Shown here in pieces: positions 16,791 through 50,733 of a stretch of DNA of 64,000 bases. Position 1 is the stretch's first letter, and each line of letters opens with the position of its first letter. Source of the DNA: Opitutales bacterium (GTDB lineage: Bacteria > Verrucomicrobiota > Verrucomicrobiia > Opitutales > PNEW01); contig CBDANS010000007.1 of NCBI GenBank assembly GCA_965197745.1, positions 1,472,001-1,536,000 on the forward strand, in the 5' to 3' direction. Under the pieces are notes generated by a model. The model ran no database searches, was not told where the DNA came from, and saw only the letters and a list, made by a program, of their open reading frames with translations. The position numbers and the translations under genes are program-made.

Positions 16791-19073
16791 TTACTCTATC
16801 GTCATCTCTTCAGTGTCGACAATGATTTCATCACCATCTTCGTTAGCGAAGGTTGCAACAATACTCCGCGTGGGTTGAGGGGTGTTGTCTGACTTGAAGT
16901 TATTCTGCGTGGTCAGCATTTCAAATCCGGGGGTCGTCGATCCACTCTCCGCGACTACAATCGATGCTCCGTTCGTCTGTGCCAGGTCTCCTCCGGTGAT
17001 CCGCAACCCAGGGTTACCGGCTGCTACCGTAAAGGACCCTTCACCAAATAACAGGTGCGGCACTGCATCGCCATCAGCATCAATGTCACCTACAGTTAAG
17101 CGTACCGCTATCGGTACCCCCCGTGCATCAATCCCTATGTTCCCTGTACTCCTACTAAAGACGGCGTTTGATAACTGCATTCCTCCCATCCCCGTGGAGT
17201 TGATCACCTGTACCAGGGTCACATCTGCCTGCGCACCGTACTCTTGTCCCTCAGGGAACAAGGCCTGGTTCACCGCATTGATCTTTCCTACCGTGAAGAT
17301 ACTAAAATAGGTCGTTTCATCGGCTCCCTCGATCACCACGCTCGGTTTGCCTGTAACATACGCTACCCCTGACTGATTATACCGTGGGGGAGCCTTCGCT
17401 GCTAAATATGTACTCGAATCCAAGGTCACCGTAAAGGTCCCAGCTCCAGAGTACTCCACTTGTACGATGTCTTCATCTTCGTCCATAAACGATACCCGGG
17501 TGATGTGCCCAGTCTTCGCCTGTAACTTGATGCTCTCTCCCGTTAATAATACTTGATCAAATATATTTCCATTGGGGTGTTGAATGTCCTCCCCAGCTAT
17601 CGAGCCTGAACCCGTTAGGACTAACGGTACTGTGACCGTGACCGCCGCGGTGTCACTATCTGCTGTACCTCCGTCATTAGTCACTTGTACCCAGAAGTTA
17701 GTAATCGCCCCTAATCCCCCCGTGGTCATCGTACTCTCAGTTGCTCCCTCGACCGGCCAATTGGTGTCGGGATGTATCCCTCCATACCACTGGTAGGTTA
17801 GATCATCTCCACTCGCCTCGACGCTTAATGTTACCGGGTGACCCGTTGCTACTGACTGACTTACCGGTTGCGTCGTGATCTCAGGGGCTGGGACTGCCGG
17901 GGTCGTTGGAGTCGCAGTCGACCCCGTACCAGGTGCTCCAATCGGGGTGAAACCAAAATCATCGATACCGTTACGGGTATAAATATTAGCGTTCACATCT
18001 TCTTCATCACTATAAACAATCTTCCCAATGCCTCCGGGTGCTCCCAATTCATCTGCGTTAAAGGTAAGAAAAGCAGGTTTATATAGTGGATCAACAGTCG
18101 ACTCTAAATTTGTTACGGTCACGAGCAGGTTATCATTAGTATCGAAGACTTCAACTGTGCAATCGATATCTGTCTGATCCCTTATAGGTTGACAATTTGC
18201 ATAAAAATCCACCTCATAAGCCGGAGTTTCAAAGGTGATGGTGAATCCCCCCCCTCCAGCCTCTACAATAAAAGATTGGTTAAAAGAATGGTTTGATGGG
18301 CCGGATGCTTCAGCTATTTGGGCACTAGATGGGCCGCCACCACTAGCCCTAATACCACCTCCAGTACCACCAGTACTGGTAAAAGTAGCGGTATTAGGAG
18401 AAACCCCAATAGAAAAAGGTTCCAGTCTACCATCACCTACCCCAAATCCTTCATCCGACTCAAAGCGGGTATAGACCGTATTATTGACAGGCTTATCGGT
18501 GGGTGTGTAGCCAAGATCATCTATGGACAATTTACCTGTAACATTGAAAATCTTTACTTCTTTTATACCTTCAATGAATTCCAGATCAGTTCCATCAAGA
18601 AAATTGCCACTGTCAGCAATAAAGCTTTGTAAGGCCGAGTTGATGTTAGCCGGTAGTCCGGTAACTTCGCCATGATCTCCTATCACTGTTATAACTTCAC
18701 CAAATCCGCCGGCGGCTTCTCCCCCGATGTTTTTATCTCCTTTGACCTCGATTTTGCCACCCCCTGTTGATTCGGCCGCGTAAAATTCTAAGGTATGAAT
18801 CCCGCGGGGGCTTATTATTTTTCCCTCTTGACCAGGCCCAAGTGTTAACGCTTTCGTTCCGGAGTGTAAGAGCGCAGGATCATCGAGAGTTTCTACCGTG
18901 AATCCGATGAGTGTTACCACGTTTGGCTCTTGACCGATATAGATCGTACCTTCTCCACTAACACTTTCAAAGTCAGTGAATATTTCCAGGTCTTGCGGAA
19001 GAGCCAACAGGTGCACCGGTAAATAGAGAAAAAGAATCAGAATCGAAATTAATTCTATAGGCTGTCTTTTCAC
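16791..19073 (-). CDS. Secreted Ig-domain surface protein, copy 1
   Basis: Signal peptide ending ...LLA-LPQ; two related domains (FTDFE...IDDLGY and YTRFE...IDDFGF); Pro/Thr linker; Ig domain (ITTQP...LSVEASG..LTYQWY); conserved C-terminal domain. GTG19073 is preferred over TTG19112 by alignment with the paralogs. Confidence 0.85.
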   Translation of the reverse strand: MKRQPIELISILILFLYLPVHLLALPQDLEIFTDFESVSGEGTIYIGQEPNVVTLIGFTVETLDDPALLHSGTKALTLGPGQEGKIISPRGIHTLEFYAAESTGGGKIEVKGDKNIGGEAAGGFGEVITVIGDHGEVTGLPANINSALQSFIADSGNFLDGTDLEFIEGIKEVKIFNVTGKLSIDDLGYTPTDKPVNNTVYTRFESDEGFGVGDGRLEPFSIGVSPNTATFTSTGGTGGGIRASGGGPSSAQIAEASGPSNHSFNQSFIVEAGGGGFTITFETPAYEVDFYANCQPIRDQTDIDCTVEVFDTNDNLLVTVTNLESTVDPLYKPAFLTFNADELGAPGGIGKIVYSDEEDVNANIYTRNGIDDFGFTPIGAPGTGSTATPTTPAVPAPEITTQPVSQSVATGHPVTLSVEASGDDLTYQWYGGIHPDTNWPVEGATESTMTTGGLGAITNFWVQVTNDGGTADSDTAAVTVTVPLVLTGSGSIAGEDIQHPNGNIFDQVLLTGESIKLQAKTGHITRVSFMDEDEDIVQVEYSGAGTFTVTLDSSTYLAAKAPPRYNQSGVAYVTGKPSVVIEGADETTYFSIFTVGKINAVNQALFPEGQEYGAQADVTLVQVINSTGMGGMQLSNAVFSRSTGNIGIDARGVPIAVRLTVGDIDADGDAVPHLLFGEGSFTVAAGNPGLRITGGDLAQTNGASIVVAESGSTTPGFEMLTTQNNFKSDNTPQPTRSIVATFANEDGDEIIVDTEEMTIE

Positions 19074-19246
19074 GCTGTTATAACAATTAAAGCAATGCCA
19101 GAGATTTTTCAAAACAACTTATTATTTATAAGAGTTTATAAAGCATAATTGTTTTGAAATATACTAAAAGACAACATATCCATCGATATCCAAGGATAAC
19201 GCTGACTGAAATTAATTACTTTTCCCCTGATAATTTAGGGGGCGGG

Positions 19247-19307
19247 GGGGGTATAAAAATACACATCCCATTCAATCGATATTCCATTAATCTGTATGCA
19301 GCGGAGG
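19247..19307 (+). repeat. 61-bp direct repeat (G-rich motif family) on the 5' side of Ig copy 1
   Basis: Partner of 16692-16752. Confidence 0.85.
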
Positions 19308-19702: not shown

Positions 19703-20554
19703 ATGTCTCAGCGTTTTGAATCCAACTACCCACTCGATCCCGAACAGATTAAGGAATGGGTGGACACCTTTAACCGCCAGGGGGTTCTTTTCCTGGAAAA
19801 TGTTCTGACCGAGGATCATGTAGCCCAGTTGAAAGCTGATCTCGACTGGTCAATTGACAATATCACTTCAGTCGACGACGACCCCTATGGCAAACTCAGC
19901 AGTCGAAATTCAGTAAAAAATATCTGCCTCTGCCATCGAATGTTTGAACATAGTCCGGCCAACCTTAACCTCTTCGACCTCGAGCCTATTGTCAGCTTTG
20001 CTGAAGCCTTGGTTGCTACCAACAGCCATGTCATTCACAACAACTCATGCCATGTCATTAACAACAACTCATTTGTCACATATCCGGGTGGTGGTATCAC
20101 AAGCTGGCACCAGGATGATCCTCCACATATGATCGTTACCGATGGAGAACCGCCAACGAATATTCAGCTGCCTGTTCTCGCTTTTACCTGCAATTACTAT
20201 TTAACAGATGTCACTGAAGTTGAACAAGGCGGGACTGAAGTCATTCCCGGTTCTCACCTCTTTGGCGCTGATGCGCGCAAGGCTGATTTCAATGGAGAAT
20301 GGAAGGACAAAATTCACTATAACTTGGGTAAAGCCGGAAGCGTGATCATGTTCAACAACCAGGTCTGGCACCGTGGAGGCCCCAATCGCACCAATAGAAA
20401 ACGTTATATTACCCTAATTACATACGCCCGCCGCTTTATCGGACACAAATATTTTCCCTTCATGAATTACACTATGCCCGAGCATGTCTACAAGGACGCG
20501 AATCCTCGGCTCAAACGCCTGCTCGGCTTCCTCGAACACGGCGCTTACGGGTAG
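19703..20554 (+). CDS. Phytanoyl-CoA dioxygenase (PhyH) family 2OG-Fe(II) oxygenase
   Basis: WHQD, GGTEVIPGSHL and GSVIMFNNQVWHRG motifs; contains a 24-bp tandem duplication at 20025-20072. Confidence 0.88.
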   Translation: MSQRFESNYPLDPEQIKEWVDTFNRQGVLFLENVLTEDHVAQLKADLDWSIDNITSVDDDPYGKLSSRNSVKNICLCHRMFEHSPANLNLFDLEPIVSFAEALVATNSHVIHNNSCHVINNNSFVTYPGGGITSWHQDDPPHMIVTDGEPPTNIQLPVLAFTCNYYLTDVTEVEQGGTEVIPGSHLFGADARKADFNGEWKDKIHYNLGKAGSVIMFNNQVWHRGGPNRTNRKRYITLITYARRFIGHKYFPFMNYTMPEHVYKDANPRLKRLLGFLEHGAYG

Positions 20555-20866: not shown

Positions 20867-23800
20867 GTGAAACGTGCTTTCAAATATTGCGGGTTAATAT
20901 TTCTTACGGGGTGTTGTTTTTTAGCATTTTTGTATTTCTGGAGTGATGTCTTAAAGCCGGAACTGGAAGAGGAACCCATTCGCTATAGCCCGGAAAAAAT
21001 TGATTACATCGAAAAGTCAAGAGACGTTAGTTTCACTGAAGACGACCTTTTCAAAATACAGCAGGATGTCGATTACCGCGGGGGTGAATCCGGCACATGG
21101 TATCCTAAATCCGAATCACCCATCCTCAGCGAACTGGTAGAGGAGGGCAATCTTCCACCGGTGGCCGAACGTGTGGGATCCGAGCCGGTAGTGCTTAAAG
21201 GTGTGGACAGTATTGGTAGATACGGCGGCACCTGGTTTCAAGTGGTAGGATCACCACACCAGGCAGAATACGTCGGTAGCTTCTTTGCCGGATCTTCTCT
21301 TGTTCGCTGGTCGCCGCTCGGTTACCCGATCGTCCCTCATATCGCTAAGCGTTGGGATTCCAGTCCCGATAAGAGGGCATGGACATTTTACCTGCGAAGA
21401 GGCATGAAGTGGTCTGACGGCCACCCTTTTACTGCCGATGATATCCTGTACTGGTGGGAAAAAGAAATACCGCTTAATATCCCTGGGGTTGCTACTGCCG
21501 AATGGATGGATATAGGCGGTAAGACAGGGGAGATAACTAAAATCGATGATCACACCGTAAAGTTCGTTTTCCCTCACCCCTATGGAGCATTTTTAGAAGC
21601 CTTGGCTAAATTTAATGATATTTGCTCGCCTCAACATTACCTGGAAATATACCACCCGGTATTTGGTGATGACGCCCTTATCGAAGCGAACATGGAAGAA
21701 AGGAGGCTACCTTCGCGTAGGAGCCTATATGCTTCATTGAAACTCTGGAACAACCCAGAACACCCGAGGATTTGGCCCTGGCTTTATCGCACTTTTAAAG
21801 CGAATCCACCCCAGGTGTTTGTCCGCAATCCCTTCTACTGGGCAGTTGATACCGAGGGCAATCAGCTCCCCTATGTGGACCAATTATTTACCGAGGCAAA
21901 AACCTATAAGCTTATACCAATAACTGCGGCCAGTGGAGCCGTCACCTTTAAAATTTTTGGCAGTATGGATCTCTATTATACCCTGCTCATGTCACAACGC
22001 GAAATAAACAATTACGAAGTGTATCACTGGTTTCCAGCTTCACGTTCACGCTACCTCATCCATCCAAATCTAAATTTATTGGTGGACCCTGACGATCCGG
22101 TTACCCAAATGAAACATGATCTCCTCAACAGCAAACGGTTCCGCCAGGCACTTTCCCTCGCCATCAATCGACGCCAAATAATCAAAAATGTATACAATGG
22201 AGTGGGAGAACCCGCACAGTTATCACCCGGGAGGGAGTCATATTTCCACCATGAAAAACTTTATAAAAGTTTCACCGAATATTCACCCGACAAGGCTAAC
22301 GCCTTACTCGACGAGCTCGGTCTAACCCGGAGGGATTCCAAGGGATACCGTACATTTGTGGACGGTACGCGTATGGTCTGGTATTATACCATTAAACAGG
22401 GAGAAGACGAAGGACCGACGGAGCTCATCATCGAAGACTGGAGCCGCATTGGCATTCGCGCCGTCCAGCGTCAGCCGCCATCGGCCCTCTTTAGAGTACA
22501 ACTAAATTCGCGCAAAGTCGAATTTTCCATTTATCCTGGGAACGCAGAATACATTCCTGTTATAGGGGGTAAAAAAATTGCTGGAATATCAGCATATCAA
22601 GCCTATGGCTATCAGAATTGGTACAAGCGAGGGGGACTTTACGGAAATCCTGAAGCCACAGAGTTAGGCGGCATTGAACCACCGATAGATCACCCCATGC
22701 GACAGACAATGAAGCTGATCGATGAATCATACAGTGCAATTAATCGTGAAGATCAACGGTTAATTTTCAATAAGCTTTTCGACATCGCCGCAGAGAATGT
22801 CTGGTCAATCAATGTAACCCCTTCACCACCGTTCCCGGTAGTGGTCAAAAACGATTTTAAAAACGTTCCATACAATGCCGCATATAGTGGATTCTTCCTT
22901 ACGCCATCTAACGCGGGAATGGAAACCTACTACTTTGAGAAGCCTTATAATTCGCCTGGAACCCTTGCGCAAATGAAAAAAGAATTGATAGAAATCACCC
23001 CTGCTTCTTACGGATCCAGCCAGGATGATCCAACATCAAGCAGTAATGAACGCATGGCATGGCTTATAAAAAAACTGTTTTTAGGTGTTGCCGTTTGCGG
23101 AATAATATTGATCGGGATACGGCATCCTTATATCGGCAGGCGACTACTCATCATGGGTCCGACTCTTCTCATTATCTCGATGATCTCTTTTGTTATCATT
23201 CAGCTGCCACCGGGAAATTATATCGATACAAAAATTATAGAATTACAGTTAAAAGGTAGTCAGGTAGACATCGATGAGATTGAAAAGCTGCGGGAGATCT
23301 TTCATCTCGATAAGTCTATTGCCGAACGTTATTTACTTTGGCTAGGTCTTAACTGGTTTACTTCCTTTGAAAAAAAAGACCAGGGTTTATTACAGGGTCA
23401 CTTGGGTTTATCCATGGAAAACCAGAGCACGGTCAATGCAGTGGTGGGCGATCGTATCCTTCTAACTTTGCTCATTTCGATGGGCACTATACTTTTTACC
23501 TGGGCAGTAGCCTTACCCATCGGAATATATTCAGCAGTTCGCCAATATACCTTGGGTGATTATGTATTTACATTGATCGGTTTCATTGGAATGAGTATTC
23601 CCAGTTTTCTCCTCGCCTTGATCCTTCTTTATTGGAGCAGTAAGTACCTGGGCATTAATATTTCGGGTCTATTTTCACCTGAATATTCAATCCAACCAGA
23701 ATGGACTAAAGGTAAAATAGTTGACCTCTTGCAGCACATCTGGGTACCCGTTGTCGTCCTCGGCGCCACGGGAACCGCGAGTATGATCCGGGTAATGCGA

Positions 23801-24154
23801 GGTAACCTGCTGGACGAGTTGAAAAAACCTTATGTCATTACCGCGATGGCCAAGGGAGTGCGCCCATTTAAACTGTTGATGAAATATCCCGTGCGATTGG
23901 CACTTAATCCATTTATTTCCAGTATCGGGGCGATCTTTCCCCAACTGGTCTCCGGGGGCGCAATCGTCGCGATGGTCCTCAGCTTACCCACGGTAGGACC
24001 GTTAATGCTGGAAGCACTGATGAAGGAAGATATGTATTTGGCCGGATCGATGCTCATGATTCTCAGCCTTCTCGGCGTTCTGGGCACCCTGGTCAGCGAC
24101 CTGCTCCTAATGTGGCTCGATCCTCGCATACGCATGGAGGGCGGAGTGCGCTAA
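20867..24154 (+). CDS. ABC transporter family-5 solute-binding domain fused to an OppB/DppB-type permease
   Basis: SBP motifs LPPVAERV, LRRGMKWSDGHPFTADD and RNPFYWAVDTEGNQLPY; permease motifs IIQLPPGNY, IGIYSAVRQY and RVMRGNLLDELKKPYVITAMAKG (EAA loop). Confidence 0.9.
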   Translation: MKRAFKYCGLIFLTGCCFLAFLYFWSDVLKPELEEEPIRYSPEKIDYIEKSRDVSFTEDDLFKIQQDVDYRGGESGTWYPKSESPILSELVEEGNLPPVAERVGSEPVVLKGVDSIGRYGGTWFQVVGSPHQAEYVGSFFAGSSLVRWSPLGYPIVPHIAKRWDSSPDKRAWTFYLRRGMKWSDGHPFTADDILYWWEKEIPLNIPGVATAEWMDIGGKTGEITKIDDHTVKFVFPHPYGAFLEALAKFNDICSPQHYLEIYHPVFGDDALIEANMEERRLPSRRSLYASLKLWNNPEHPRIWPWLYRTFKANPPQVFVRNPFYWAVDTEGNQLPYVDQLFTEAKTYKLIPITAASGAVTFKIFGSMDLYYTLLMSQREINNYEVYHWFPASRSRYLIHPNLNLLVDPDDPVTQMKHDLLNSKRFRQALSLAINRRQIIKNVYNGVGEPAQLSPGRESYFHHEKLYKSFTEYSPDKANALLDELGLTRRDSKGYRTFVDGTRMVWYYTIKQGEDEGPTELIIEDWSRIGIRAVQRQPPSALFRVQLNSRKVEFSIYPGNAEYIPVIGGKKIAGISAYQAYGYQNWYKRGGLYGNPEATELGGIEPPIDHPMRQTMKLIDESYSAINREDQRLIFNKLFDIAAENVWSINVTPSPPFPVVVKNDFKNVPYNAAYSGFFLTPSNAGMETYYFEKPYNSPGTLAQMKKELIEITPASYGSSQDDPTSSSNERMAWLIKKLFLGVAVCGIILIGIRHPYIGRRLLIMGPTLLIISMISFVIIQLPPGNYIDTKIIELQLKGSQVDIDEIEKLREIFHLDKSIAERYLLWLGLNWFTSFEKKDQGLLQGHLGLSMENQSTVNAVVGDRILLTLLISMGTILFTWAVALPIGIYSAVRQYTLGDYVFTLIGFIGMSIPSFLLALILLYWSSKYLGINISGLFSPEYSIQPEWTKGKIVDLLQHIWVPVVVLGATGTASMIRVMRGNLLDELKKPYVITAMAKGVRPFKLLMKYPVRLALNPFISSIGAIFPQLVSGGAIVAMVLSLPTVGPLMLEALMKEDMYLAGSMLMILSLLGVLGTLVSDLLLMWLDPRIRMEGGVR

Positions 24155-24274: not shown

Positions 24275-25063
24275 TTATATTTTCGCACCAAGCTCGACGA
24301 GGCTTTCCACCATTCCCCGGATTCGTGCACTGTCGCTTTTAATAAACGCTTGATGGGGCCGGAATATTCTTCCGTCTGATTTATAACGCAGTAATGCGGC
24401 GATGTCTTCATCATTCTTAATCCTCGCCCCGAATTTCAGTGCAATGTAGCGGCGTTCATTTTCTAAATTGCCAAACACCGAATGCAACAAACACTGATTG
24501 AAGAATATTACATCACCGGGATTGGATTCAAAAGGATAAGCGGGAATTGACGGCTCATCCACTCCGTAGGGTTTTCCCCTGACTTTATTTTCCCCGTAGT
24601 AAAGCGGTTTGAGCATCTCGTGAAAGGGCGCTCGATGAGAACCCGGAATTACACGCAGGGAACAGGTTTCTTTCGTCGTTGGATCGAGATATAAATGAAC
24701 CTTGATCGTCATATAGCTGAGTTCGTTGTGACCTTGTCTGTCTGCATGCCAGGAGGTTTGGCTGCGGCCACAAACTCCCTCGGACCCAGTCCAGATAAAT
24801 TCTTGCCCAAGTAATTGTTCAATTGTCTCGTAGATACGGTCATCCTCAACCAGCTTAGTCAATTCGGGATCTTTCTCGATAAAATAATCGACGACCTTGG
24901 TCACATTTTTCCCATCGCCAGAATCTTCGATTCGACCATTTTCTCTCTCCGACATATACTCATAGCGGCTTATCATCTTCTCCATTTCCTCAGGTGAAAA
25001 TGCGTGCCGCAATACGAGAAAACCAAAGGTTTCGAAGTGCGCTATCTGTTCTGGAGTCAACAT
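24275..25063 (-). CDS. PhyH family dioxygenase
   Basis: LTPEQIAHFETFGFL, WHAD, LRVIPGSH and PGDVIFFNQCLLHS motifs. Confidence 0.88.
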   Translation of the reverse strand: MLTPEQIAHFETFGFLVLRHAFSPEEMEKMISRYEYMSERENGRIEDSGDGKNVTKVVDYFIEKDPELTKLVEDDRIYETIEQLLGQEFIWTGSEGVCGRSQTSWHADRQGHNELSYMTIKVHLYLDPTTKETCSLRVIPGSHRAPFHEMLKPLYYGENKVRGKPYGVDEPSIPAYPFESNPGDVIFFNQCLLHSVFGNLENERRYIALKFGARIKNDEDIAALLRYKSDGRIFRPHQAFIKSDSARIRGMVESLVELGAKI

Positions 25064-25411: not shown

Positions 25412-27625
25412 TCATTCTATTGTCACTTCTTCAGTTGTCACCGCGATATCATCCCCATCCTCGTTGGAGAACGTAGCGTCAATGCTCAGGGTCGGTTGAG
25501 GCGTTTCGTCAGACTTGAAATTGTTCTGTGTGATCAGAGTCTCAAACCCCGGTGTTGTCGATCCACTCTCCGCCACGACGATCGAAGCGCCATTCGTCTG
25601 CAACAGGTCTCCACCCGTGATGCGCAAACCGGGGTTGCCCGCCGGTACCGTGAAGGACCCGTCTCCGAACAGCAGGTGCGGCACCGCATCGCCGTCGGCG
25701 TCGATGTCGCCCACCGTTAAGCGTACCGCGATCGGCACTCCGCGCGCATCGAAGCCGACCTTGCCCGTGCTTCCACTGAACACGGCATTCGATAACTGTG
25801 CCCCTCCCAGTCCCGTGGAGTTGACTACTTCCACGAGTGCCACGTCGGCCTGGGCGTCATAGACCTGTCCTTCGGGGAACAGCGCCTGGTTAAAGGCGTT
25901 GATCCTGCCCACCGTGAAGATGCTGAAGAAGGTATTGGCGTCGGCTCCGTCGATGACCACGCTCGGCTTTCCCGTTACGTACTCCACGGCCTGGTTGTAG
26001 CGTGGTGGGACAGCCGGGGGCAGGAAGGTGGCCGGGTCCAGGGTTACGGTAAAGGTACCGTTACCTGAGAACTCTACCTGCACAATGTCCTCGTTTTCGT
26101 CCATGAAGGAAACACGGGTGATCTGTCCCGGTTTGGCCTGGAGTTGGACGGACTCTCCGGTGAGTAGTATCTGGTCGAAGACGTTGCCGTTGGCATGCTG
26201 AATGTCTTCACCCGCGATATCCCCCGAGCCGCCTAGGATGAGAAGCACCGGTGGTGCGGCAACGGTAATGACGGCCGTATCGCTGTTGGCGCTCCCTCCG
26301 GCGTTCGTTACCTGCACCCAGAAATTCGTGCTCGCGGTGAGTGCACCCGTGGTCAAGGTATTCGACGTAGCCCCGGCGATGGGATTAGCAGTGTTGCCGC
26401 TATTGCCTTCATACCACTGGTAAGTGAGATCGTCGCCGCTGGCTTCAACTGACAAAACGACAGCGGTCCCCGACTGCACTTCCTGGTTCGTGGGTTGGGT
26501 AGTGATAGGGGGAGCATCCGCGGGTGGCGGTGCTGAGGTATCAGTGCCCGGTGCGCCAATAGGAGTAAAACCGAAATCATCGAAGACTGTTGCGCTTCTC
26601 GCTATATTTACATTGGGATTGTCCTTAACAATAATTCTGTCAATGCCGCCTGGAGCTCCCAACTCTACAGTATTGATTGTAGTTTGACGGGGTTTAAGTA
26701 AAGCATCAAGACCCCCAGCACTTTCCAAGTCCGAAATGGTAGCAAGAAGGTTATCATTAGTATCGTAAACTTCGATTGTTCCGTCCGGGTCAGTAGTGCC
26801 GGTCAAAACAATGGCTGCGGCGAAAACATCGATTTCAAATGCCGGAGTTTCAAAGGTGACCGTGAAGCTTTCTCCGTTAGAAATCCCATAGGATTGAAGT
26901 CCCGATCGCGTTGGATTATTTGCGGCAGATAAAATCGAGCCCCCATCAAAAGTAGCACTAATAGGTGATTCCCCAACAATAATGGGTGCCGTTATTCCTG
27001 CACCCACACTAAAATCCTCAAAAGTAGTGAATACGGTGTTATTGGACGGTCTTTTCGTTATCGTGAAACCCAGATCGTCAAGGGAGAATTTTCCTGAAAC
27101 ATTTTTGATTTTTAATTCTTTAATGCCGTCGAGAAAGTCAAAATCGGTTGAGTCGAGGAACATATCACTGTCTGAAACAAAGCTTTGTAATGGGGGATTG
27201 GCACTGGGGCTGATATTGGTCGGTAAACCTTCGACAATACCATTTTCCGCTATAACTATTATAATGAATAGTTCTGAATCGGCCTTATTTCCTCTGGGCT
27301 CGATTCTGCCGGCTCCCGTATTCTCGGCCGCATAGAATTGGATTTCATCAATTCCTCTTTCCGATACAATTACCCCCTCCTGACCAGGTCCGAGGGTTAT
27401 CGCCTTTGTTCCGGAGTGTAAGAGCGCCGGATCTTCCAGAGTTTCCACCGTGAATCCGACTAACTTGATCCTATTGGGTTCTTCCCCAATGAAAAATTCA
27501 CCTTCCCCACTTATGTCCTCGAAATCCGTGAATACCTCAAGTTCTTGTGGAAGGGCCGACAGGCGTGCCGGTGAATAGAGTAAGAGAATCAGAATCGAAA
27601 TTATTTTTATAGTTTTATTATTCAT
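25412..27625 (-). CDS. Secreted Ig-domain surface protein, copy 2
   Basis: Same architecture as copy 1; the N-terminal framework is nearly identical to copy 5. Confidence 0.88.
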   Translation of the reverse strand: MNNKTIKIISILILLLYSPARLSALPQELEVFTDFEDISGEGEFFIGEEPNRIKLVGFTVETLEDPALLHSGTKAITLGPGQEGVIVSERGIDEIQFYAAENTGAGRIEPRGNKADSELFIIIVIAENGIVEGLPTNISPSANPPLQSFVSDSDMFLDSTDFDFLDGIKELKIKNVSGKFSLDDLGFTITKRPSNNTVFTTFEDFSVGAGITAPIIVGESPISATFDGGSILSAANNPTRSGLQSYGISNGESFTVTFETPAFEIDVFAAAIVLTGTTDPDGTIEVYDTNDNLLATISDLESAGGLDALLKPRQTTINTVELGAPGGIDRIIVKDNPNVNIARSATVFDDFGFTPIGAPGTDTSAPPPADAPPITTQPTNQEVQSGTAVVLSVEASGDDLTYQWYEGNSGNTANPIAGATSNTLTTGALTASTNFWVQVTNAGGSANSDTAVITVAAPPVLLILGGSGDIAGEDIQHANGNVFDQILLTGESVQLQAKPGQITRVSFMDENEDIVQVEFSGNGTFTVTLDPATFLPPAVPPRYNQAVEYVTGKPSVVIDGADANTFFSIFTVGRINAFNQALFPEGQVYDAQADVALVEVVNSTGLGGAQLSNAVFSGSTGKVGFDARGVPIAVRLTVGDIDADGDAVPHLLFGDGSFTVPAGNPGLRITGGDLLQTNGASIVVAESGSTTPGFETLITQNNFKSDETPQPTLSIDATFSNEDGDDIAVTTEEVTIE

Positions 27626-28278: not shown

Positions 28279-28288
28279 GATCGATAGC

Positions 28289-41263: not shown

Positions 41264-41417
41264 CCTTATTAACTGTTTGATTTTTAAGCGGTAATAAAAG
41301 GCATCTGGCTGTAAAAGAAGGACTTGGACGCGCAATCGTCCATTGCTTTAAATATTAGAAAAAGCGATCAAGCAGTAACTAGAGGTAAGTAATGGCAATA
41401 AATCTGATACAATTAAT

Positions 41418-41500
41418 GGGGGCGGGGGCGGTAAAAAAACATACCCTTAATCAATCGATAATCCATTAACCCGTATGCGGCGGAGGTGTTTTTTCCCAGA
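41418..41500 (+). repeat. G-rich motif family copy
   Basis: gggggcgggggcggtaaaaaaacataccc...caatcgataatccattaacccgtatgcggcggagg. Confidence 0.75.
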
Positions 41501-41602
41501 GAGGATTTAATAGTTAACCAATCACAGGATAGTAATCTCAAGCGCTGAGGAGCGCTGACGACGTTTTTATGAATGAGGGGATAACTGGCATACCCCTTGA
41601 AG

Positions 41603-41765
41603 GATCATTCGATCGTTTCCTCATTCACGGTTACCGCAATCTCATCACCATCTTCGTTTGCGAAGATTGCTTCGACAGTCTGCGTCGGTTGTGGAGTGTT
41701 GTCGGACTTGAAGTTGTTCTGGGAGATCAAGGTTTCAATTCCTTTCGTTGTCAGTCCACTCTCTA
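41603..41765 (-). pseudogene. Orphan 3' remnant of the Ig-domain surface protein family (remnant C)
   Basis: ESGLTTKGIETLISQNNFKSDNTPQPTQTVEAIFANEDGDEIAVTVNEETIE* followed by tccttcaaggggtat. Confidence 0.85.
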
Positions 41766-43805
41766 CCAACCCCGATCAAAAAAGAATTGTTCGGGGCGGG
41801 CGATGCCGGGGGTTTGTAAGGTTCCGCTGTTTGGCGCGACATCGGGAACATTACGAAAATTATTTTTTACCACGACAATGCCGTTCATGCCCGGTGATTG
41901 CCCGACAGTGCCAACAACATAGAGATTGTCTGAATGGATTCTCCATATTTCTTTTCCCAGTTCCGTTCGCATCGCTTTGGGCAGGCCATTACCTTCCTCA
42001 AATATTTCTATCAAACGTTTAAGATCTCCACAAGGGGCCACGCCCTTTCGACCGTTAGATTCATACCATAAGCCGATTTGCGACGCAAAGGTACCGCGAC
42101 TGAGTGGTATGGTCATGCCGGGTAAAGTCCACGGGTTTTCAGAACCGCCCGAAACCCACATGCTAAGTTGGTGATCGTTGATTGATTGACGTCTGCTATA
42201 ATAACTTCGCTCTTCAACGCTTAAATGTATATTTATGCCGATATCCTTCCAATGATTCACGAGAAGTTCAGCTATACCTTCAAAATTAACCATCGCCTGA
42301 CTCAGCACTGATTGCGTAATAATCAGACGTTCCTTATTGTCAGTGCGCAGTCGGTATCCTTCGTTGTCCTTTTTATCCAAACCGATAGCGTCGAGGATCG
42401 CGTTGGATTGTTCCAGGTCGCGCACCGCATTCTTTTTTTCGTACTCCGGTCCGGGATAATACGGGTTATTCGGGAATGGGACGAAGGCCCTTGGCTGACC
42501 CATGCCCAGAAAGATCGATTCGTGTATCTCCTCTCGATCGATAGCAAGAGACAGAGCAATGCGAAATTTACGGTTTCTAAGCCACTTTTCTATTTCCGGA
42601 TCTCCCTGCCAGGTTTGGTTAATAAATATTATGGCATCGGAACCTCCTAAATTAGGCCAGAAGAGTACGCGGTAATTACCTCTTTTTGCTTCCCGCTTGA
42701 GAACAGGGACCTTGTCCAAGAGGACATGACGGTGCTGCATGTCTACTTCTCCAGCCATAACGCGAGCATTGAACACCTCTAAGTCCTCAACCAGATGCAT
42801 TACAATCTTGTCGATATAGGGAAGCTGATTCCCTTCGGGATCGACGGCAAAGTAATAGGGGTTGCGTTCCAAAGAGTAAATTTCACTCGTTATCGGAGTA
42901 ACCATCTTCCAGGGACCGACCACCGGTATTTCGGGGTTCTCGTGGGGCGAAGCCATGCGTTTGAAGAGTTGCACCCAACTTCTATCACCCGTAGACTTCA
43001 TCTTAATTTTCAGATCACTTAAGGGGGTATACTTCGAGTGAAACTGCATTAAATAATGCCGGGGAGCATAGAGAGGGCTTTCCCATCTGCGGGCGAATTG
43101 GCCTCCCACCGCTAATCCACCAGCATTTTCGATGAATACATAGTTTGGTTTATGAAAGGTATAACGAACCGTGGTCTCATCTAACTTTTCCACTTTAAAC
43201 CGTTGCCCATCCGCTTTTGTGTAGTTGGGTATTACCGGGTTGATATTATCATTCAAGGTCACGTCTTCGAAGGCGAAAACAAAGTCATCAGCCGTGAACG
43301 GCGCTCCGTCAGACCACTTCATGCCCTGGCGCAGATGGAAAGTAAACATTGTCCCGTCTACGCTGATTTCCCATCCTTTCGCGATGTGGGGCATCAGGGT
43401 ATAACCGTCGATATCGAAGTAAATTATATGATCGTGTATTATCCGGTCGATGTTGTTACGATCGCCACGCCCCGTAAAACCGCGGCGCCAGGTACCACCG
43501 TATTGGCCGATGCGTTCAATGGGTGGAATAATCAACGGATCTTCGGGCAGACGGTCTTCTACCGAGGGCAACTCTCCCGCAGCAACGCGCTTTGCCAGTT
43601 CCGGCGCTTCGTTGAAAGTTGTGGGAATCGAGCCCTTATAAATAAAACTAAATCCTTCAGTACTGACAGCGTCTCGTTTAAGTGTGTCCAGTTTTCCTTT
43701 TGATTGAGTGTCATTGCTCCTGCTGCAGCCAAATGCTGCAATAATGATTGCCATCATGCATAGTGTGATCGGTATCCGATACCTGCTGAAATAGAATACC
43801 TTCAT
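41763..43805 (-). CDS. ABC transporter family-5 solute-binding lipoprotein, paralog of 36833-38857
   Basis: Lipobox-like AAFGC; colinear with 36833-38857; ends FFFDRGW instead of FFFEN. Confidence 0.9.
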   Translation of the reverse strand: MKVFYFSRYRIPITLCMMAIIIAAFGCSRSNDTQSKGKLDTLKRDAVSTEGFSFIYKGSIPTTFNEAPELAKRVAAGELPSVEDRLPEDPLIIPPIERIGQYGGTWRRGFTGRGDRNNIDRIIHDHIIYFDIDGYTLMPHIAKGWEISVDGTMFTFHLRQGMKWSDGAPFTADDFVFAFEDVTLNDNINPVIPNYTKADGQRFKVEKLDETTVRYTFHKPNYVFIENAGGLAVGGQFARRWESPLYAPRHYLMQFHSKYTPLSDLKIKMKSTGDRSWVQLFKRMASPHENPEIPVVGPWKMVTPITSEIYSLERNPYYFAVDPEGNQLPYIDKIVMHLVEDLEVFNARVMAGEVDMQHRHVLLDKVPVLKREAKRGNYRVLFWPNLGGSDAIIFINQTWQGDPEIEKWLRNRKFRIALSLAIDREEIHESIFLGMGQPRAFVPFPNNPYYPGPEYEKKNAVRDLEQSNAILDAIGLDKKDNEGYRLRTDNKERLIITQSVLSQAMVNFEGIAELLVNHWKDIGINIHLSVEERSYYSRRQSINDHQLSMWVSGGSENPWTLPGMTIPLSRGTFASQIGLWYESNGRKGVAPCGDLKRLIEIFEEGNGLPKAMRTELGKEIWRIHSDNLYVVGTVGQSPGMNGIVVVKNNFRNVPDVAPNSGTLQTPGIARPEQFFFDRGW

Positions 43806-45407: not shown

Positions 45408-45454
45408 CGTGGCACGCCACAGCATAGCGACGGCGGCTAACACTTATCGATAGT

Positions 45455-47680
45455 TCATTCAATGGTTATCTCATCCACCTCGACGGATATCTCTTCGTCG
45501 TCCTCATTGACAAACGTTGCATTAATGGTCTGTGTCGGCTGAGGCGTGTTGTCTGATTTGAAGTTGTTCTGCGTGATCAAGGTATCGAATCCCGTCGTCG
45601 TCGATCCACTCTCCGCTACCACGACTGCCGCACCGTTCGTCTGTAACAAGTCGCCACCCGTGATCCGTAACCCGGGGTTGCCGGCTGGAACGGTGAAGGA
45701 GCCTGAGCCAAATAATATGTGCGGTACCGCATCGCCACTGGCATCGATGTCGCCAATCGTTAAGCGTACCCCGATCGGTACCCCACGCGCGTCGATACCG
45801 GTCTTGCCCGTACTTCCACTGAACACGGTGTTCGACAGTTGTATGCCGCCCATGCCCGTGGAATTTACAATTTCCACGAGGGTCACGTCCGCTTGCGCGT
45901 CATAGACCTGTCCTTCGGGGAAGAGGGCCTGGTTAAACGCGTTGATCCTACCCACGGTGAAGATACTGAAGAAGGTATTGGCGTCCGCTCCGTCGATCAC
46001 TACGCTCGGTTTGCCCGTCACGTACTCAACGGCTTGGTTGTAGCGTGGGGGGATGGCCGGGGGGAGGAAGGTGGCCGGATCCAGGGTTACGGTAAAGGTC
46101 CCTGCGCCCGAGAACTCTACCTGCACGATATCCTCGTTTTCATCCATGAAAGAGACGCGGGTGATCTGTCCCGATTTGGCCTGGAGTTGGACGGACTCTC
46201 CGGTGAGTAAAATCTGGTCGAAGACATTACCGTTGGCATGCTGAATGTTTTCACCGGCGATATCACCCGAACCGTCGAGGACGAGAGGAACGGCCGGGGC
46301 TGCGATGGTGATAACAGCGGTATCGCTATCGGCTGTACCTCCAGCGTTAGTTATCTGCACCCAGAAGCTTGTGCTCGCGGTGAGCGCGCCGGTGTCCAGC
46401 GTACTACCGGTTGCTCCAGCGACGGGAGCGGCGGTGTCACCGCTGTTTCCGGTGTACCACTGGTAAGTGAGATCATCACCACTGGCGGCGACAGACAAGC
46501 TCGCCGTGGTGCCGGATGCAACTTCCTGGCTCGCGGGCTGTGTGGTGATAGAGGGAGCATCAGCGGGTGGGGGACCCTCGGAGCCTGTGCCCGGTGCGCC
46601 AATGGGGGTAAAACCGAAATCATCGAAGACTGTCCGGCTGAAAGCTACATTTATATTGGGATTGTCCGTAACAAGCAGTCTGCCAATGCCGCCTGGAGCT
46701 CCCAACTCCACCGCATTGATCGTAGTTTGACGGGGTTTATTTAAAGAATTAAGACCCCCAGCACCCCCACCACTTCCAGCACTTTCCAAGTCCGAAATAT
46801 TAGCAAGAAGGTTATCATTAGTATCGTAAACTTCAATTGAGCCGTCGGGGTCAGTACCGCCAGCCAAAATAATGGCTGCGGCGAAAACATCGATCTCAAA
46901 TGCCGGAGTTTCAAAAGTGACCGTGAAGCTTTCTCCGTTAAAAATACCATAGGATACTTGTCCCGAGCGAACTGGACTGTCTGCAGCAGCAGCTAGAATC
47001 GAGCCACCATCAAAAGTAGCACTATTGGGTGATTCTCCAACAATAATGGGTGCCGTTAATCCTGCACCCACACTGAATTCCTCAAATGTAGTGAATACGG
47101 TGTTATTGGACGGTCTTTCCGTTATCGTGAAACCCAGATCGTCAAGGGAGAATTTTCCTGAAACATTTTTGATTTTTAATTCTTTAATGCCGTCGAGAAA
47201 GTCAAAATCGGTTGAGTCGAGGAACATATCACTGTCTGAAACGAAGCTTTGTAATGGGGGATTGGCACCGGGACTGATATTGGTCGGTAGACCTTCGACA
47301 ATACCATTATCCGCTAGAATTAATACAAATATATTGCCTTCAAAAGAGATATTTCCTCTGGGCTCGATTCTACCGGCTCCCGTATTCTCGGCCGCATAGA
47401 ATTGGATTTCATCAATTCCTCTTTCCGATACAATTACCCCCTCCTGACCAGGTCCTAGGGTTATCGCTTTTGTTCCGGAGTGTAAAAGCGCAGGATCCTC
47501 TAAAGTTTCAACGGTGAATCCGACTAACTTGATCCTATTGGGCTCTTCCCCGATAAAAAATTCACCTTCACCGCTGATGTCCTCGAAATCAGTGAACACC
47601 TCCAGATCTTGAGGAAGAGCTATTAGAAGAAGAGGGGATAAAACTGAGAAAATAATGATCGCTAACGAATTATTTTTCAT
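45455..47680 (-). CDS. Secreted Ig-domain surface protein, copy 5
   Basis: Same architecture; closest to copy 2 in the N-terminal domains. Confidence 0.88.
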   Translation of the reverse strand: MKNNSLAIIIFSVLSPLLLIALPQDLEVFTDFEDISGEGEFFIGEEPNRIKLVGFTVETLEDPALLHSGTKAITLGPGQEGVIVSERGIDEIQFYAAENTGAGRIEPRGNISFEGNIFVLILADNGIVEGLPTNISPGANPPLQSFVSDSDMFLDSTDFDFLDGIKELKIKNVSGKFSLDDLGFTITERPSNNTVFTTFEEFSVGAGLTAPIIVGESPNSATFDGGSILAAAADSPVRSGQVSYGIFNGESFTVTFETPAFEIDVFAAAIILAGGTDPDGSIEVYDTNDNLLANISDLESAGSGGGAGGLNSLNKPRQTTINAVELGAPGGIGRLLVTDNPNINVAFSRTVFDDFGFTPIGAPGTGSEGPPPADAPSITTQPASQEVASGTTASLSVAASGDDLTYQWYTGNSGDTAAPVAGATGSTLDTGALTASTSFWVQITNAGGTADSDTAVITIAAPAVPLVLDGSGDIAGENIQHANGNVFDQILLTGESVQLQAKSGQITRVSFMDENEDIVQVEFSGAGTFTVTLDPATFLPPAIPPRYNQAVEYVTGKPSVVIDGADANTFFSIFTVGRINAFNQALFPEGQVYDAQADVTLVEIVNSTGMGGIQLSNTVFSGSTGKTGIDARGVPIGVRLTIGDIDASGDAVPHILFGSGSFTVPAGNPGLRITGGDLLQTNGAAVVVAESGSTTTGFDTLITQNNFKSDNTPQPTQTINATFVNEDDEEISVEVDEITIE

Positions 47681-47981: not shown

Positions 47982-48000
47982 AATCCCACCCTCTCCGCCA
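47982..48000 (+). repeat. tRNA-Ser-like 3' end remnant
   Basis: AATCCCACCCTCTCCGCCA, with shorter copies at 48112, 27736 and 27905. Confidence 0.6.
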
Positions 48001-48152
48001 GTTCGATTGTCGATTGCACCTGACGGATAAAAAATTGTTTATCTTGTGAACCATTCTAGAGACTTTCTTAATCAATCGAAAATCGTCAATCGAAAATCGG
48101 AAATTATCTATCCCTCTCCGCCACTTCGATTGTGGATATCAGATTACGGATC

Positions 48153-48480
48153 GAATAAAAAGTCGACGGTTGTAGGTTATTTCCTTTTTGTCATTGCGAG
48201 GAGCAACGCGACGCGGCAATCCAGTAAAATGTCTGTTGCGTAATGTAATTCCCGTGATGTTAGGAATTACTCTCAACTAATCGATTTCCTTTAAATGAAG
48301 AGACGAATCCTCATTGGAAAGACCAGAGCAGAGATTTTTATTCGTAAGCACTATGACTATGTGCCTAGATTGCCGCAGTCGGTTGCACCTCCTTCGCAAT
48401 GACAAAAAGGGAAGAGCGCTAATGCGCGTGTTATGTGTTAAGTTCCAAGTGTTAAGTAAATTAACCTAAAACCTAACACT
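48153..48480. repeat. Second copy of the ~325-bp intergenic block
   Basis: Near-identical to 27953-28278; contains a TGTCATTGCG element at 48189-48404. Confidence 0.9.
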
Positions 48481-48525
48481 TAACACATAATAAGCGTTGG
48501 TCTCCTACATTTTGACGTTTTGACC

Positions 48526-50733
48526 CTACTCAATCGTGATCTCTTCGAGAACAACCGCGATCGCATCGCCGTCTTCATTGGCGAAGGTGGCGTCGATACT
48601 CTGAGTCGGCTGAGGCGTGTTATCGGATTTAAAATTGTTTTGCGTGATCAGGGTCTCAAACCCGGTGGTGGTTGATCCACTCTCCGCCACGACGACCGCA
48701 GCGCCGTTGGTCTGCAAGAGGTCTCCTCCGGTGATCCGCATCCCGGGGTTGCCCGCCGGTACCGTGAAGGACCCATCTCCAAACAGGAGGTGGGGTACCG
48801 CATCGCCACTGGCATCGATGTCACCTACCGTTAAGCGTACCGCGATCGGCACCCCGCGCGCATCGAAGCCGACCTTGCCCGTGCTTCCACTGAACACGGT
48901 ATTCGATAACTGTACCCCTCCCAGTCCCGTGGAGTTGACTACTTCCACGAGGGCCACGTCGGCCTGGGCATCATAGACCTGTCCTTCGGGGAACAGTGCC
49001 TGGTTAAAGGCGTTGATCCTTCCCACCGTGAAAATGCTGAAGAAGGTACTGGAGTCCGCTCCATCGATGACCACGCTCGGCTTGCCCGTCACATATTCGA
49101 CGGCCTGGTTGTAGCGTGGGGGGACGGCCGGAGGCAGAAAAGTGGCTGGATCGAGGGTTACGGTAAAGGTCCCATTACCTGAAAATTCTACCTGTACGAT
49201 GTTCTCGTTTTCGTCCATGAAGGAGACGCGGGTAATCTGTCCCGGCTTAGCCTGGAGTTGGACGGACTCTCCGGTGAGTAATATCTGGTCGAAGACGTTG
49301 CCGTTGGCATGCTGAATGTTTTCCCCGGCGATATCGCCTGAGCCGTCGAGAACGAGGGGGATGGAAGGTGCTGCCACGGTTATCACCGCAGTTTCACTGT
49401 CATCACTGCCGCCGGCGTTGGTAACCTGCGCCCAGTAGTTCGTGCTCGTGGTGAGTGCACCGGTAGTTAAGGTGCTGCCGGTGGCGCCGGAGACGGGTGC
49501 TGCGGTGTCACCGCTGTTGCCGGTATACCATTGGTAAGTAAGATCATCACCGCTGGCCGCTACGGTCAGCACTACCGCCGTGCCAGACTGCACCTCCTGG
49601 CTCGCGGGTTGGGTAGTGATGGAGGGGCCTTGTGCTGGAGGGGGTCCGCCTCCATCTTCGAAACCCGGGGTTCCAATAGGAGTAAAACCGAAGTCGTCGA
49701 TGCCTGTTGAGCTGAATAATGGATTTACATTTTCATTATCGAGTAAAAGAATTTTAGCAATGCCGCCCACGGCTCCCAATTCACTGGCAATAAATGTATA
49801 ATGTGGAACGAGTGATCCCTTCAGGATATTGGTCGCCAGATCTACTTCCCTGGCAATTAAATTATCTTCAGTATCAAATACCTCAATAGTACCATCGGAT
49901 TCGCCTAATGCTTGGGCGACGATGGTTGCGGCAAAAAATTGTACTCGGGCTGCCGGTGTTTCGAAGGTGATCGTTCCCGTATCGCCATTCTGAACTCTCC
50001 AGTGACTACGTTGTGTGCGGAATTAAAAGCCGAGCAAATCTTCCGCTTCCTGGGATATATCTGCGCCTGAAAAGGTGGCGGTAAAAGGCGATGTTCCAAT
50101 AGTAATATCATCACTGGTAGGTTGGAATTCTGAAAAGAAAGTAAATACCGTGTTGTTCCTCGGCCCATCGATGAGGGTATAACCCACATCGTCGATGGCT
50201 AATTTACCCGTTACATTCAGGAATTTAATTTCATTCATCCCGTCAATGTAATTGAGGTCCGATTCGTCAAGAAAATTGCCACTAAAGGCAACGATTCTTT
50301 GCAGCGGAGGATTGTACTCCGGGTTGATGCTGTTTGGAAAGCCCGTAAAAACACCCTGCTGAGTTAATTCAAATACTTCTTGTCCTGTTGCATCTGTATC
50401 ACGTTCTCGAACCTCGATCTTTCCCGCGCCCGTGTTTTCAACCACGTAGAATTCGATTTCAGCAATCCCTTTTCTCGTGAAAATCTTTCCTTCCTGGCCG
50501 GGGCCCAGGGTTATTGCTTTCGTTCCCGAGTGCAGCAGACTTGGATCCTCCAGCGTTTCTACCGTAAACCCAATAAATTGGATTTGATTAGGTGGATCAC
50601 CGAGTAAAAAATCAACTGAACCTTCGGCATCTTCAAAATCTAAAAAATTTTCCTGGTCTTGTGGAAGAGCTCGGAGAAGAAGCGGGAAAAAGAGTGAGAT
50701 TAGTGATACGGATACAATATTTTTTAAGCGCAT
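48526..50733 (-). pseudogene. Secreted Ig-domain surface protein, copy 6, with one in-frame nonsense codon
   Basis: ORFs 50023-50733 and 48526-49779 are in the same frame (2208 nt in total). After TAA 50023-50025 the frame stays open as FRTQRSHWRVQNGDTGTITFETPAARVQFFA...DGTIEVFDTEDNL. Confidence 0.85.

Follow-up and report, generated by a model that had tools for sequence, protein, structure and literature searches.

Mosaic paralogs of a modular secreted-protein gene family in an Opitutales bacterium, very probably shaped by intragenomic recombination

We analyzed a 64,000-nt stretch of the genome of an Opitutales bacterium (contig CBDANS010000007.1, positions 1,472,001 to 1,536,000; "the window" hereafter means this whole stretch), whose minus strand carries, between positions 16791 and 50733, six collinear paralogs of an uncharacterised secreted-protein gene. 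An earlier note on this DNA had claimed that these paralogs are mosaics whose closest partners switch along the gene, and had proposed segmental gene conversion or module shuffling between copies as the cause. Our analysis supports that proposal through incongruent trees, two kinds of recombination test, synonymous divergence (dS) and internal patches. The paralogs belong to a secreted modular family, seen so far in Opitutales alone, that was very probably made mosaic by repeated intragenomic recombination, mostly gene conversion. The six copies (c1 to c6) and the one interruption among them are located as follows:

16791-19112, minus strand: c1, a 773-aa open reading frame (ORF) from a TTG; the true start may be later
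25412-27625, minus strand: c2, 737 aa
28289-30520, minus strand: c3, 743 aa
34435-36693, minus strand: c4, 752 aa
45455-47680, minus strand: c5, 741 aa
48526-50733, minus strand: c6, full length, with a single in-frame stop
50023-50025, minus strand: the in-frame TAA of c6, sole interruption of an otherwise open frame

Start codon, signal peptide and own upstream region are complete in five of the six copies, and the sixth carries one point nonsense change. The codon at the position of this stop reads CAA in the three closest relatives of c6, which is either a very recent pseudogene or the site of a base error.

All six copies matched PF19081, an immunoglobulin (Ig)-like domain annotated as CHU_C associated, at 33.2-43.6 bits (gathering cut-off 27.3), over ~85 of ~740 residues. 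Scans of the six copies returned no Pfam match beyond PF19081 and no NCBIfam match; in particular, the N-terminal 370 residues matched no carbohydrate-binding module (CBM) family of either collection, and a look-alike search of the ESM Atlas gave no usable match. An AlphaFold2 model of c4, built on a 73-sequence alignment, predicts a signal helix, two beta-sandwiches (~aa 30-195 and 200-370) and the Ig domain at a predicted local distance difference test score (pLDDT) of ~85-95, with the C half remaining below 50 in this full model (shallow family alignment). Modeled alone on a 30-sequence diverse alignment, the last ~280 codons (the C module; e.g. 34438-35283, minus strand, in c4) yielded an all-beta structure at pLDDT 94.5 and a predicted template-modelling (TM) score, pTM, of 0.92. 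Foldseek related the N domains to MAM, ephrin ligand-binding (ephrin-LBD), reelin, CBM22 and CBM51 domains (E 1e-9 to 1e-6); these matches (PDB 2v5y, 4xup, 2ygm, 5g56) had low TM-scores of 0.1-0.4 and sequence identities of 8-16%. The predicted architecture is a signal peptide, two variable jelly-roll beta-sandwiches of MAM/ephrin-receptor/CBM-like type, the Ig domain (PF19081) and a conserved ~280-aa all-beta C module.

That closest partners switch along the gene was borne out at the nucleotide level, in 150-nt windows, in dS and in topology tests. The groupings that the earlier note had read from the translations are visible in the alignment: c1 and c2 have matching leaders, as do c3 and c6; domain 1 opens in one way in c3, c4 and c6 and in another in c2 and c5; domain 2 pairs c1 with c4 and c2 with c5; and the linker reads PPPAQGP in c4 and c6 and PPPADAP in c2, c3 and c5. 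Scanned in 150-nt windows, c1 and c4 are 52-57% identical over alignment positions aa 1-50, 75-92% over aa 76-400 and 59-65% over aa 400-600; the identity of c3 and c6 passes along the gene from 87-90% through 35-65% to 73-97%; and c2 and c4, at 49-68%, rise to 95-98% at aa 526-575. A piecewise model placed one to four change-points in each of the 15 pairs.

Synonymous divergence, estimated per segment by the Nei-Gojobori method together with nonsynonymous divergence (dN), followed the same pattern. Between c1 and c4, dS was 0.38 at aa 61-400 and saturated elsewhere; between c2 and c5, it was 0.22 at aa 61-400 vs 0.67-1.59 downstream. The reverse held for c2 and c4 (1.76 at aa 61-400 vs 0.24-0.29 at aa 501-680) and for c3 and c6 (saturated at aa 61-400 vs 0.13 at aa 601-680). 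The synonymous divergence of one and the same pair thus changes 5- to 10-fold between segments, implying common ancestry of unequal age within a single gene pair. At nonsynonymous sites, the C half is far less diverged than the N half (dN 0.01-0.06 vs 0.09-0.49).

Per-segment trees and recombination tests, the checks suggested by the earlier note, gave incongruent topologies and positive signals, respectively. The pairwise homoplasy index (PHI), computed over 624 informative sites, came to 0.296, whereas permutation gave a mean of 0.409 (sd 0.0034; z = -33) and, in 2000 rounds, no value as low as the observed one. Bootscanning (neighbour-joining trees in 240-nt windows, 200 replicates) returned mutually exclusive splits in different windows, each at 96-100%: {1,2,5}, that is 125|346, at aa 1-100; {2,5}, {1,4} and {1,3,4} at aa 61-460; {2,4} at aa 500-600; and {2,3} with {1,4,5} at aa 640-760. 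We further ran an exhaustive approximately unbiased (AU) test, in which each of six segments was scored on all 105 unrooted six-taxon topologies and branch lengths were fitted anew for every segment. The segments accepted 9, 1, 66, 49, 63 and 57 of the 105 topologies, and the intersection of these sets is empty; the sole topology accepted by aa 61-400 was rejected by aa 1-60, 501-600 and 601-680. Imposing the best single topology on all segments cost 54.9 log-likelihood units (lnL) at an equal number of branch parameters. In a 3SEQ-type maximum-descent test with 1000 permutations, 67 of 120 ordered triplets reached the permutation floor of p = 0.001, which by itself puts Bonferroni significance out of reach in this six-copy run; of the triplets chosen across genomes, 11/11 lay at the floor of a run with 10,000 permutations (p ≤ 1e-4).

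The family extends well beyond the window. When one genome per species was scanned with a sequence pattern, 35 loci emerged: 31 on OY829953.1, an Opitutales chromosome of 4.49 Mb, and 4 on contigs from a different Verrucomicrobia assembly. Among the candidates scored in a protein search, 609 proved to be relatives, and PF19081 was the only annotation on them. At the loci, 63 ORFs match the hidden Markov model of the family. Of these, 36 are full length and represent 35 unique copies, all on OY829953.1; the remaining 27, being partial, broken or of other architectures, were excluded from the full-length set, among them L027, the closest full-length relative of c2 (88%), which is broken by a stop or frameshift. 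OY829953.1 hence holds at least 35 full-length family copies, plus other architectures that carry the C module, and the 41-sequence analyses below combine the 35 copies with the six of the window. Identity to this related genome is 88-97% for the window's non-family genes but only 80-88%, to the best counterpart, for most family copies.

One ortholog pair captures a recent exchange. c1 and its ortholog in OY829953.1 (L002) show 16 differences in the first 1871 nt and 99 in the last 397 nt: identity per 100 nt is 98-100% over most of 19158-17271 and then 74-80% up to the end of homology, ~100 nt past the stop. The 3' tract of L002 is matched at 94% by another copy of L002's own genome, a candidate donor, while for the 3' tract of c1 nothing above 80% was found in the window or the 35 loci. 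Since the L002 tract has its match in its own genome, the replacement most likely occurred there, after the lineages split, and it points to exchange as an ongoing process. The older mosaic of c1, in which a c4-like N block is joined to a deeply divergent Ig/C half, also exists in the independently assembled OY829953.1.

The principal tracts shared between copies of the window, and the tract that sets c1 apart from its ortholog, are the following (aa are alignment positions):

17993-18902, minus strand: c4-like block of c1 (aa 71-391), shared with c4 35634-36528 at 83-98% identity
16791-17190, minus strand: 3' tract of c1, 74-80% identical to the otherwise ~99.5% identical ortholog L002 (OY829953.1)
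26933-27553, minus strand: c5-like block of c2 (aa 38-259), 92-96% identical to c5 46997-47617
25718-26230, minus strand: c4-like tract of c2 (aa 522-693), 95% identical to c4 34741-35253
28412-28900, minus strand: c6-like tract of c3 (aa 591-754), 94% identical to c6 48649-49137

Each copy is composite in its own way. c1 joins its c4-like N-terminal block to an Ig and C-terminal half that is a deep outlier, 60-78% identical to every other copy. c2 combines an N block resembling c5 and the related-genome copy L024, interrupted by a 21-codon loop at only 53% identity to c5 within aa 38-259, with a C-terminal module like those of c4, c3 and c6; the N halves of c2 and c4 are only 61% identical. 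c3 is c6-like on both sides (leader and C half) of an L020-like block at aa 48-388, and its likeness to c6 extends beyond the gene, by ~430 nt on the downstream side (27865-28288 vs 48073-48525) and by ~110 nt before the starts. In c4, a leader and C half resembling L007.4773 flank an L001-like block at aa 52-425. In c5, the sequence on either side (41/53 and 188/231 informative sites) of an internal c2/L024-like patch at aa 77-343 (161/196 informative sites) follows an L028-like backbone. The N block of c6 is the most divergent in the window, with L007.4773 and L012.11611 of the related genome as its closest relatives. Because the backbone is restored on both sides of the internal patches in c5, c3 and c4, we favour conversion or double crossover over simple fusion for these; within the C half, short tracts of 50-170 codons at 94-98% identity sit in a background of 75-85%.

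We then considered where the breaks fall. Domains 1 and 2 have near-congruent trees (lnL differences, dlnL, of 46-67 with 41 sequences), which places the main discontinuities at ~aa 50-100 and ~aa 390-430, and not at the DDLG motif between them. The earlier expectation that breakpoints would coincide with conserved anchors did not hold as a general rule: the invariant fraction around 41 change-points was 0.443 vs 0.433 at random positions (p = 0.36). As to the three anchors it had named, change-point clusters at aa 68-71, 95-100 and 391-404 do adjoin two of them, and none lies at DDLG.

On either side of these discontinuities, relatedness runs in different directions. The 41-sequence tree of aa 561-660 groups c2, c3, c4 and c6 (75% support), and the N block of each of these four has its nearest relative in the other genome. 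Taken over the whole C half, the best identity within the window (0.83-0.89) is about equal to the best in the other genome (0.88-0.90). Among the copies of OY829953.1, where homogenisation is clear for neighbours, C halves were 0.89 identical in the 14 pairs less than 10 kb apart vs 0.82 in the 581 distant pairs, and N blocks of the same pair sets 0.63 vs 0.58; in one pair of neighbours, identity is 99% between the C halves and just 52% between the N blocks. In the window, the C halves of the adjacent c2 and c3 are homogenised (88%). The last ~100 codons are the least homogenised stretch of the C half (72-86%).

These patterns would be explained by repeated homologous recombination between paralogs of one genome, mostly in the form of non-reciprocal conversion, under two regimes. 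The central block (~aa 50-390), strongly diverged between types, would occasionally be replaced whole and thus act as a swappable cassette, with the conserved leader/ETLEDPALLHSG region and the DDFGFTPIG/Ig region serving as homology arms. The leader and the Ig/C-terminal half, on the other hand, would be homogenised in short tracts, preferably between close neighbours, a form of concerted evolution. The outcome would be a common scaffold with reassorted binding domains.

Around the family copies, the window holds metabolic and transport genes. A family scan of its 26 large ORFs identified, interspersed with the copies, four PhyH-type dioxygenase genes, one GFO/IDH/MocA oxidoreductase gene and one ThuA-like gene. 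The PhyH genes, interleaved with family copies, occupy four positions:

19703-20554: PhyH-type dioxygenase gene
24275-25063: PhyH-type dioxygenase gene
40151-41026: PhyH-type dioxygenase gene
51342-52139: PhyH-type dioxygenase gene

Self-comparison of the window revealed two SBP_bac_5-permease fusion genes of 79% mutual identity, as well as two inverted SBP_bac_5 genes of 78%. The fusions (20867-24154 and 30875-34159, plus strand) are genes of ~1095 aa whose single product carries SBP_bac_5 together with a BPD_transp_1 permease domain; this fusion also adjoins family copies in the related genome (L013, L008). There, we scanned 100 of the 147 flanking ORFs, at 14 of 21 chosen loci, and found 10 PhyH genes, 7 transposases, 5 sulfatases, 5 SSF symporters, 4 FG-GAP, 3 SBP_bac_5 and 3 glycoside hydrolase genes, a mix similar to that of the window. 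PhyH is the commonest neighbour of family copies in the related genome (10/100), a recurrent association that the window shares. Together with the fold resemblance of the N domains, this neighbourhood suggests that the family proteins may bind glycans for the adjoining uptake and catabolic genes.

The C module has a wider distribution than the family. The last 282 residues match 714 representative clusters (384 at E ≤ 1e-30), mostly at the C-terminal end, in proteins of 250-3517 aa. Domain scans of 24 such proteins identified S8 and trypsin-like peptidases, RCC1, polysaccharide lyase, CARDB, Big_7, He_PIG and DUF5122 arrays as partners, and no Pfam model covering the module itself. Known C-terminal sorting domains include the C-terminal domain of type IX secretion substrates (T9SS CTD) and PEP-CTERM; the last 280 residues matched none in Pfam or NCBIfam (E ≤ 0.1) and lack a hydrophobic C-terminal helix. 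A Foldseek search against the PDB returned no relative (best E = 1.3, beta-helix proteins). As it ends many unrelated secreted proteins, the module probably serves cargo-independent export or surface attachment; with no Pfam family and no PDB fold match, it is a candidate new domain family.

Pieces of the 3' end of the family gene also occur on their own in the window, in part within larger repeats:

2992-3305, plus strand: orphan fragment 1, the last 104 codons, open, directly after two stop codons of an FG-GAP gene
8339-8652, minus strand: orphan fragment 2, open over 104 codons, preceded by a truncated duplicate of the FG-GAP gene end
41590-41763, minus strand: orphan fragment 3, the last ~57 codons, open, abutting the stop of the SBP_bac_5 gene 41763-43805
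2670-3388 and 8269-8974: inverted repeat of 85% identity, comprising FG-GAP gene end and family fragment
16689-16752, 19244-19307, 41404-41516 and ~3380-3450: repeat of ~64-110 nt, found past family 3' ends and, in the case of c1, upstream as well

The orphan fragments are conserved as proteins, at 73-81% nucleotide identity and with none above 81% to any copy; their open frames suggest either recent loss of function or maintenance by conversion. Mismatches in the fragments are spread over the bases (e.g. A 15/88, C 19/72, G 14/88, T 14/66) with no adenine bias, and a diversity-generating retroelement acting on them was rejected on that ground. The inverted repeat brackets a high-GC island (~4000-7000, 58-63% GC), whose ORF 4343-6913 encodes 856 aa without a Pfam match, has a GC content at third codon positions (GC3) of 0.80 and is 93-96% identical to sequences at the related-genome loci L028 and L008. 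Direct copies of the ~64-110-nt repeat (94%) bracket c1, and the homology between c1 and its ortholog stops at them; next to c1, the repeat has no Rfam match and folds no better than shuffled sequences (z = -1.2). Across the whole window, Rfam returned 0 matches.

Two further elements lie at lower window coordinates than c1. A 104-nt direct repeat of 100% identity (9755-9858 and 9878-9981) in the 3' end of a sodium:solute symporter gene (9697-11277) doubles ~34 residues; it arose either by tandem duplication, very recently, or as an artefact of assembly. Judged from translations only, 11377-11652 and 12552-13793 contain IS3-type transposase ORFs (HTH orfA-like, and integrase-like in another frame) and a second orfA-like fragment; parts of 12484-13801 are 84-96% identical to the related-genome loci L002, L007 and L032.

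Several points weigh against our account of the mosaics or narrow its reach. Short segments resolve poorly, with ultrafast bootstrap (UFBoot) values of 37-75% at several nodes, and the within-window C-terminal cluster has just 75% support. When the maximum-likelihood tree of one region was imposed on the data of another in the 41-sequence set, 20/20 AU cross-tests rejected it (dlnL 194-5950), a result inflated by noise in trees built from 240-300 nt, a problem from which the exhaustive six-taxon test is free. The p-values of the proximity comparison (Mann-Whitney p = 3e-6 for the C half, p = 0.04 for the N block) rest on non-independent pairs, and the adjacent c5 and c6 show no homogenisation (C half 82%), so that conversion is not simply distance-dependent. 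The end-tracts, namely the Ig/C half of c1 and the 3' tract of L002, could equally have arisen by crossover or duplication-fusion. Finally, the proposals of glycan binding, export and anchoring draw on fold resemblance and gene neighbourhood, and the C module has no structural relative.

The end-tracts lead to the question of whether the hybrids were made at birth, by unequal crossing-over or duplication-fusion of tandem copies and without gene conversion. The region is indeed a patchwork of old duplications (the SBP-permease pair at 79%, the inverted SBP pair at 78%), the common flanks of c3 and c6 reach beyond the gene, and the three orphan fragments, in abutting unrelated genes, attest to breakage and joining within the C-terminal coding region; the whole Ig/C half of c1 and similar end-tracts are moreover indistinguishable from crossover products. 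Yet the restored backbones around the patches of c5, c3 and c4, the highly identical C-half tracts embedded in a more diverged background, and the replacement in L002, an otherwise 99.5% identical ortholog that was not lost in the process, all call for a double exchange, i.e. conversion, and we regard formation at birth as unlikely. A more elaborate route would be programmed variation, in which an expressed locus draws on silent cassettes of the pilE/pilS or vlsE type, or a diversity-generating retroelement acts on a variable 3' end. This would give a role to the three promoter-less 3' fragments, open over 57-104 codons, found elsewhere in the window, and to the last ~100 codons, which are both the least homogenised part of the C half (72-86%) and the stretch replaced between c1 and L002. 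It sits poorly, however, with copies that are complete genes in five of six cases and one nonsense change short of it in the sixth, and with fragments none of which exceeds 81% identity to any copy; a scan of the 26 large ORFs of the window (150 aa or longer) detected no reverse transcriptase. We therefore hold programmed variation to be very improbable.

Could the mosaics be of technical or purely selective origin? An assembler that switches between near-identical repeats would produce chimeras, and a family with at least 35 full-length copies in one related chromosome is highly repeated. The longest identical run between any two window copies, however, is 123 nt and most are below 80 nt, the contig that holds the genes is reported as 2.29 Mb, and the c1 mosaic recurs with both junctions, at ~99.5%, in the separately assembled OY829953.1, whose own copies likewise show discordance between N and C halves. 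Partner segments differ by 5-25% with graded synonymous divergence, which speaks for old, repeated events rather than assembler switches. On this indirect evidence, assembly chimeras are very unlikely. Likewise, constraint, rate variation or convergent selection might mimic partner switching with no recombination at all, given how much stronger constraint is on the C half than on the N half. Constraint of this kind does not account for a dS that, in one and the same pair, changes 5- to 10-fold from segment to segment or drops from saturated to 0.13; topologies, beyond branch lengths, conflict in the AU test, and both PHI and the triplet tests are significant. The chance that no recombination took place seems to us close to nil. 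Repeated recombination between paralogs, mostly gene conversion, thus remains by far our preferred explanation.

The earlier note had also pointed out that N-terminal halves are more AT-rich than the rest of the gene, and the six copies show this clearly (GC 0.37-0.45 vs 0.49-0.64; GC3 0.24-0.42 vs 0.51-0.77). GC3 averages 0.486 +/- 0.057 in 24 non-family window genes (the high-GC ORF 4343-6913 left out), 0.418 in the N block of the family, 0.62 in its Ig domain and 0.64 in its C module; at fourfold-degenerate sites, GC is 0.495 in the N block and 0.664 in the C module. The lowest C-module GC3 (0.54-0.58) is found in c1 and L002, whose C half shows no exchange with the others, and across the 35 copies C-module GC3 correlates with mean identity to other copies (Spearman rho = 0.88) and with maximum identity (0.70). 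These correlations are suggestive of raised synonymous GC in the homogenised half as a by-product of GC-biased gene conversion, though shared ancestry could also link GC3 to identity. Three results tell against such a bias: in the single datable event (c1/L002), changes from weak to strong base pairs (W-to-S) numbered 44 vs 36 in the opposite direction (p = 0.43); recently exchanged N blocks keep the lowest GC3 (0.35-0.37); and C modules on unrelated architectures exceed the GC3 of their own upstream part in 12/12 rows, one of them a duplicate. For bacteria at large, one study associates more recombining sequence with higher synonymous GC (PMC4450053). The signal in Opitutales would stem from exchange between paralogs in one genome, and it is correlative only. 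The bacterial study reportedly dealt with recombination between strains.

The closest described behaviour is that of the bab, sab and hom genes of Helicobacter pylori, a set of paralogs for surface proteins in which the binding part varies and the 3' part is conserved. In a report on babA/babB/babC, sabA/sabB/hopQ and homA/homB, the 3' segment is similar within a strain (concerted evolution), the 5' and middle segments follow orthology, and chimeras are attributed to intragenomic, RecA-dependent gene conversion (PMC3960876). These families comprise two or three loci in a host-restricted pathogen, compared with dozens of copies per genome in the Opitutales family. The conserved part of the Opitutales proteins is a soluble-looking all-beta module without structural match, in which no outer-membrane barrel is recognisable. 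The Opitutales central block, unlike the variable part of the H. pylori families, is bracketed by homogenised sequence on both sides.

In antigenic variation from silent cassettes, as in Neisseria pilE/pilS, Borrelia vlsE, Anaplasma msp2 and Treponema tprK, truncated silent donors supply a single expression site. The likeness lies in segmental, non-reciprocal transfer within one genome that gives rise to mosaic surface-protein genes; the difference is that the partners in the window are complete genes and that no truncated fragment exceeds 81% identity to any of the copies. Concerted evolution is also known from duplicated bacterial genes such as tuf and the rRNA operons, where recombination homogenises repeats, nearby ones more so, a subject that Santoyo and Romero are said to have reviewed in 2005. 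In contrast to those genes, homogenisation in the Opitutales family halts at a sharp internal boundary, beyond which the other half of the gene is strongly diversified and exchanged as a whole. By their two beta-sandwiches followed by an Ig domain, and their location near sulfatase, glycoside hydrolase and sugar transporter genes, the family genes resemble those of proteins with tandem CBMs or with MAM/ephrin-receptor jelly-rolls; unlike CBM proteins, their N domains have no Pfam CBM match and gave low TM-scores only. A literature search on Opitutales and gene conversion, the one literature search made on the family, found no paper and none describing the family. The mechanism is thus known; the family and its scale are new.

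A practical consequence is that per-gene orthology and single trees for the family would mislead. The analysis also exposes a widespread 280-aa C-terminal module that has a confident model, no solved relative and matches in 714 representative clusters. The clean GC3 discontinuity inside single genes may, with more genomes, offer a test of GC-biased conversion between bacterial paralogs. Taking all strands together, one may picture a non-pathogenic marine Verrucomicrobium with a combinatorial system of surface receptors: an export and anchor scaffold common to dozens of loci would be kept uniform by local conversion, a library of binding cassettes would be reassorted among them, the orphan 3' fragments would belong to the donor pool, and the GC3 step would be the footprint of GC-biased conversion between paralogs. 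We offer this combined picture tentatively and consider it rather unlikely; if true, the GC3 step at the junction of cassette and scaffold would allow GC-biased conversion in bacteria to be tested directly, inside single genes. Pathogens are the main setting in which conversion-shaped mosaic families have been described, and immune pressure is the explanation usually given. In Opitutales, the same mosaic dynamics occur at a much larger scale, among genes for sulfated-glycan and sugar uptake, suggesting that the reassortment of binding domains on a homogenised scaffold may also generate diversity of substrate or surface in settings other than host-pathogen conflict.

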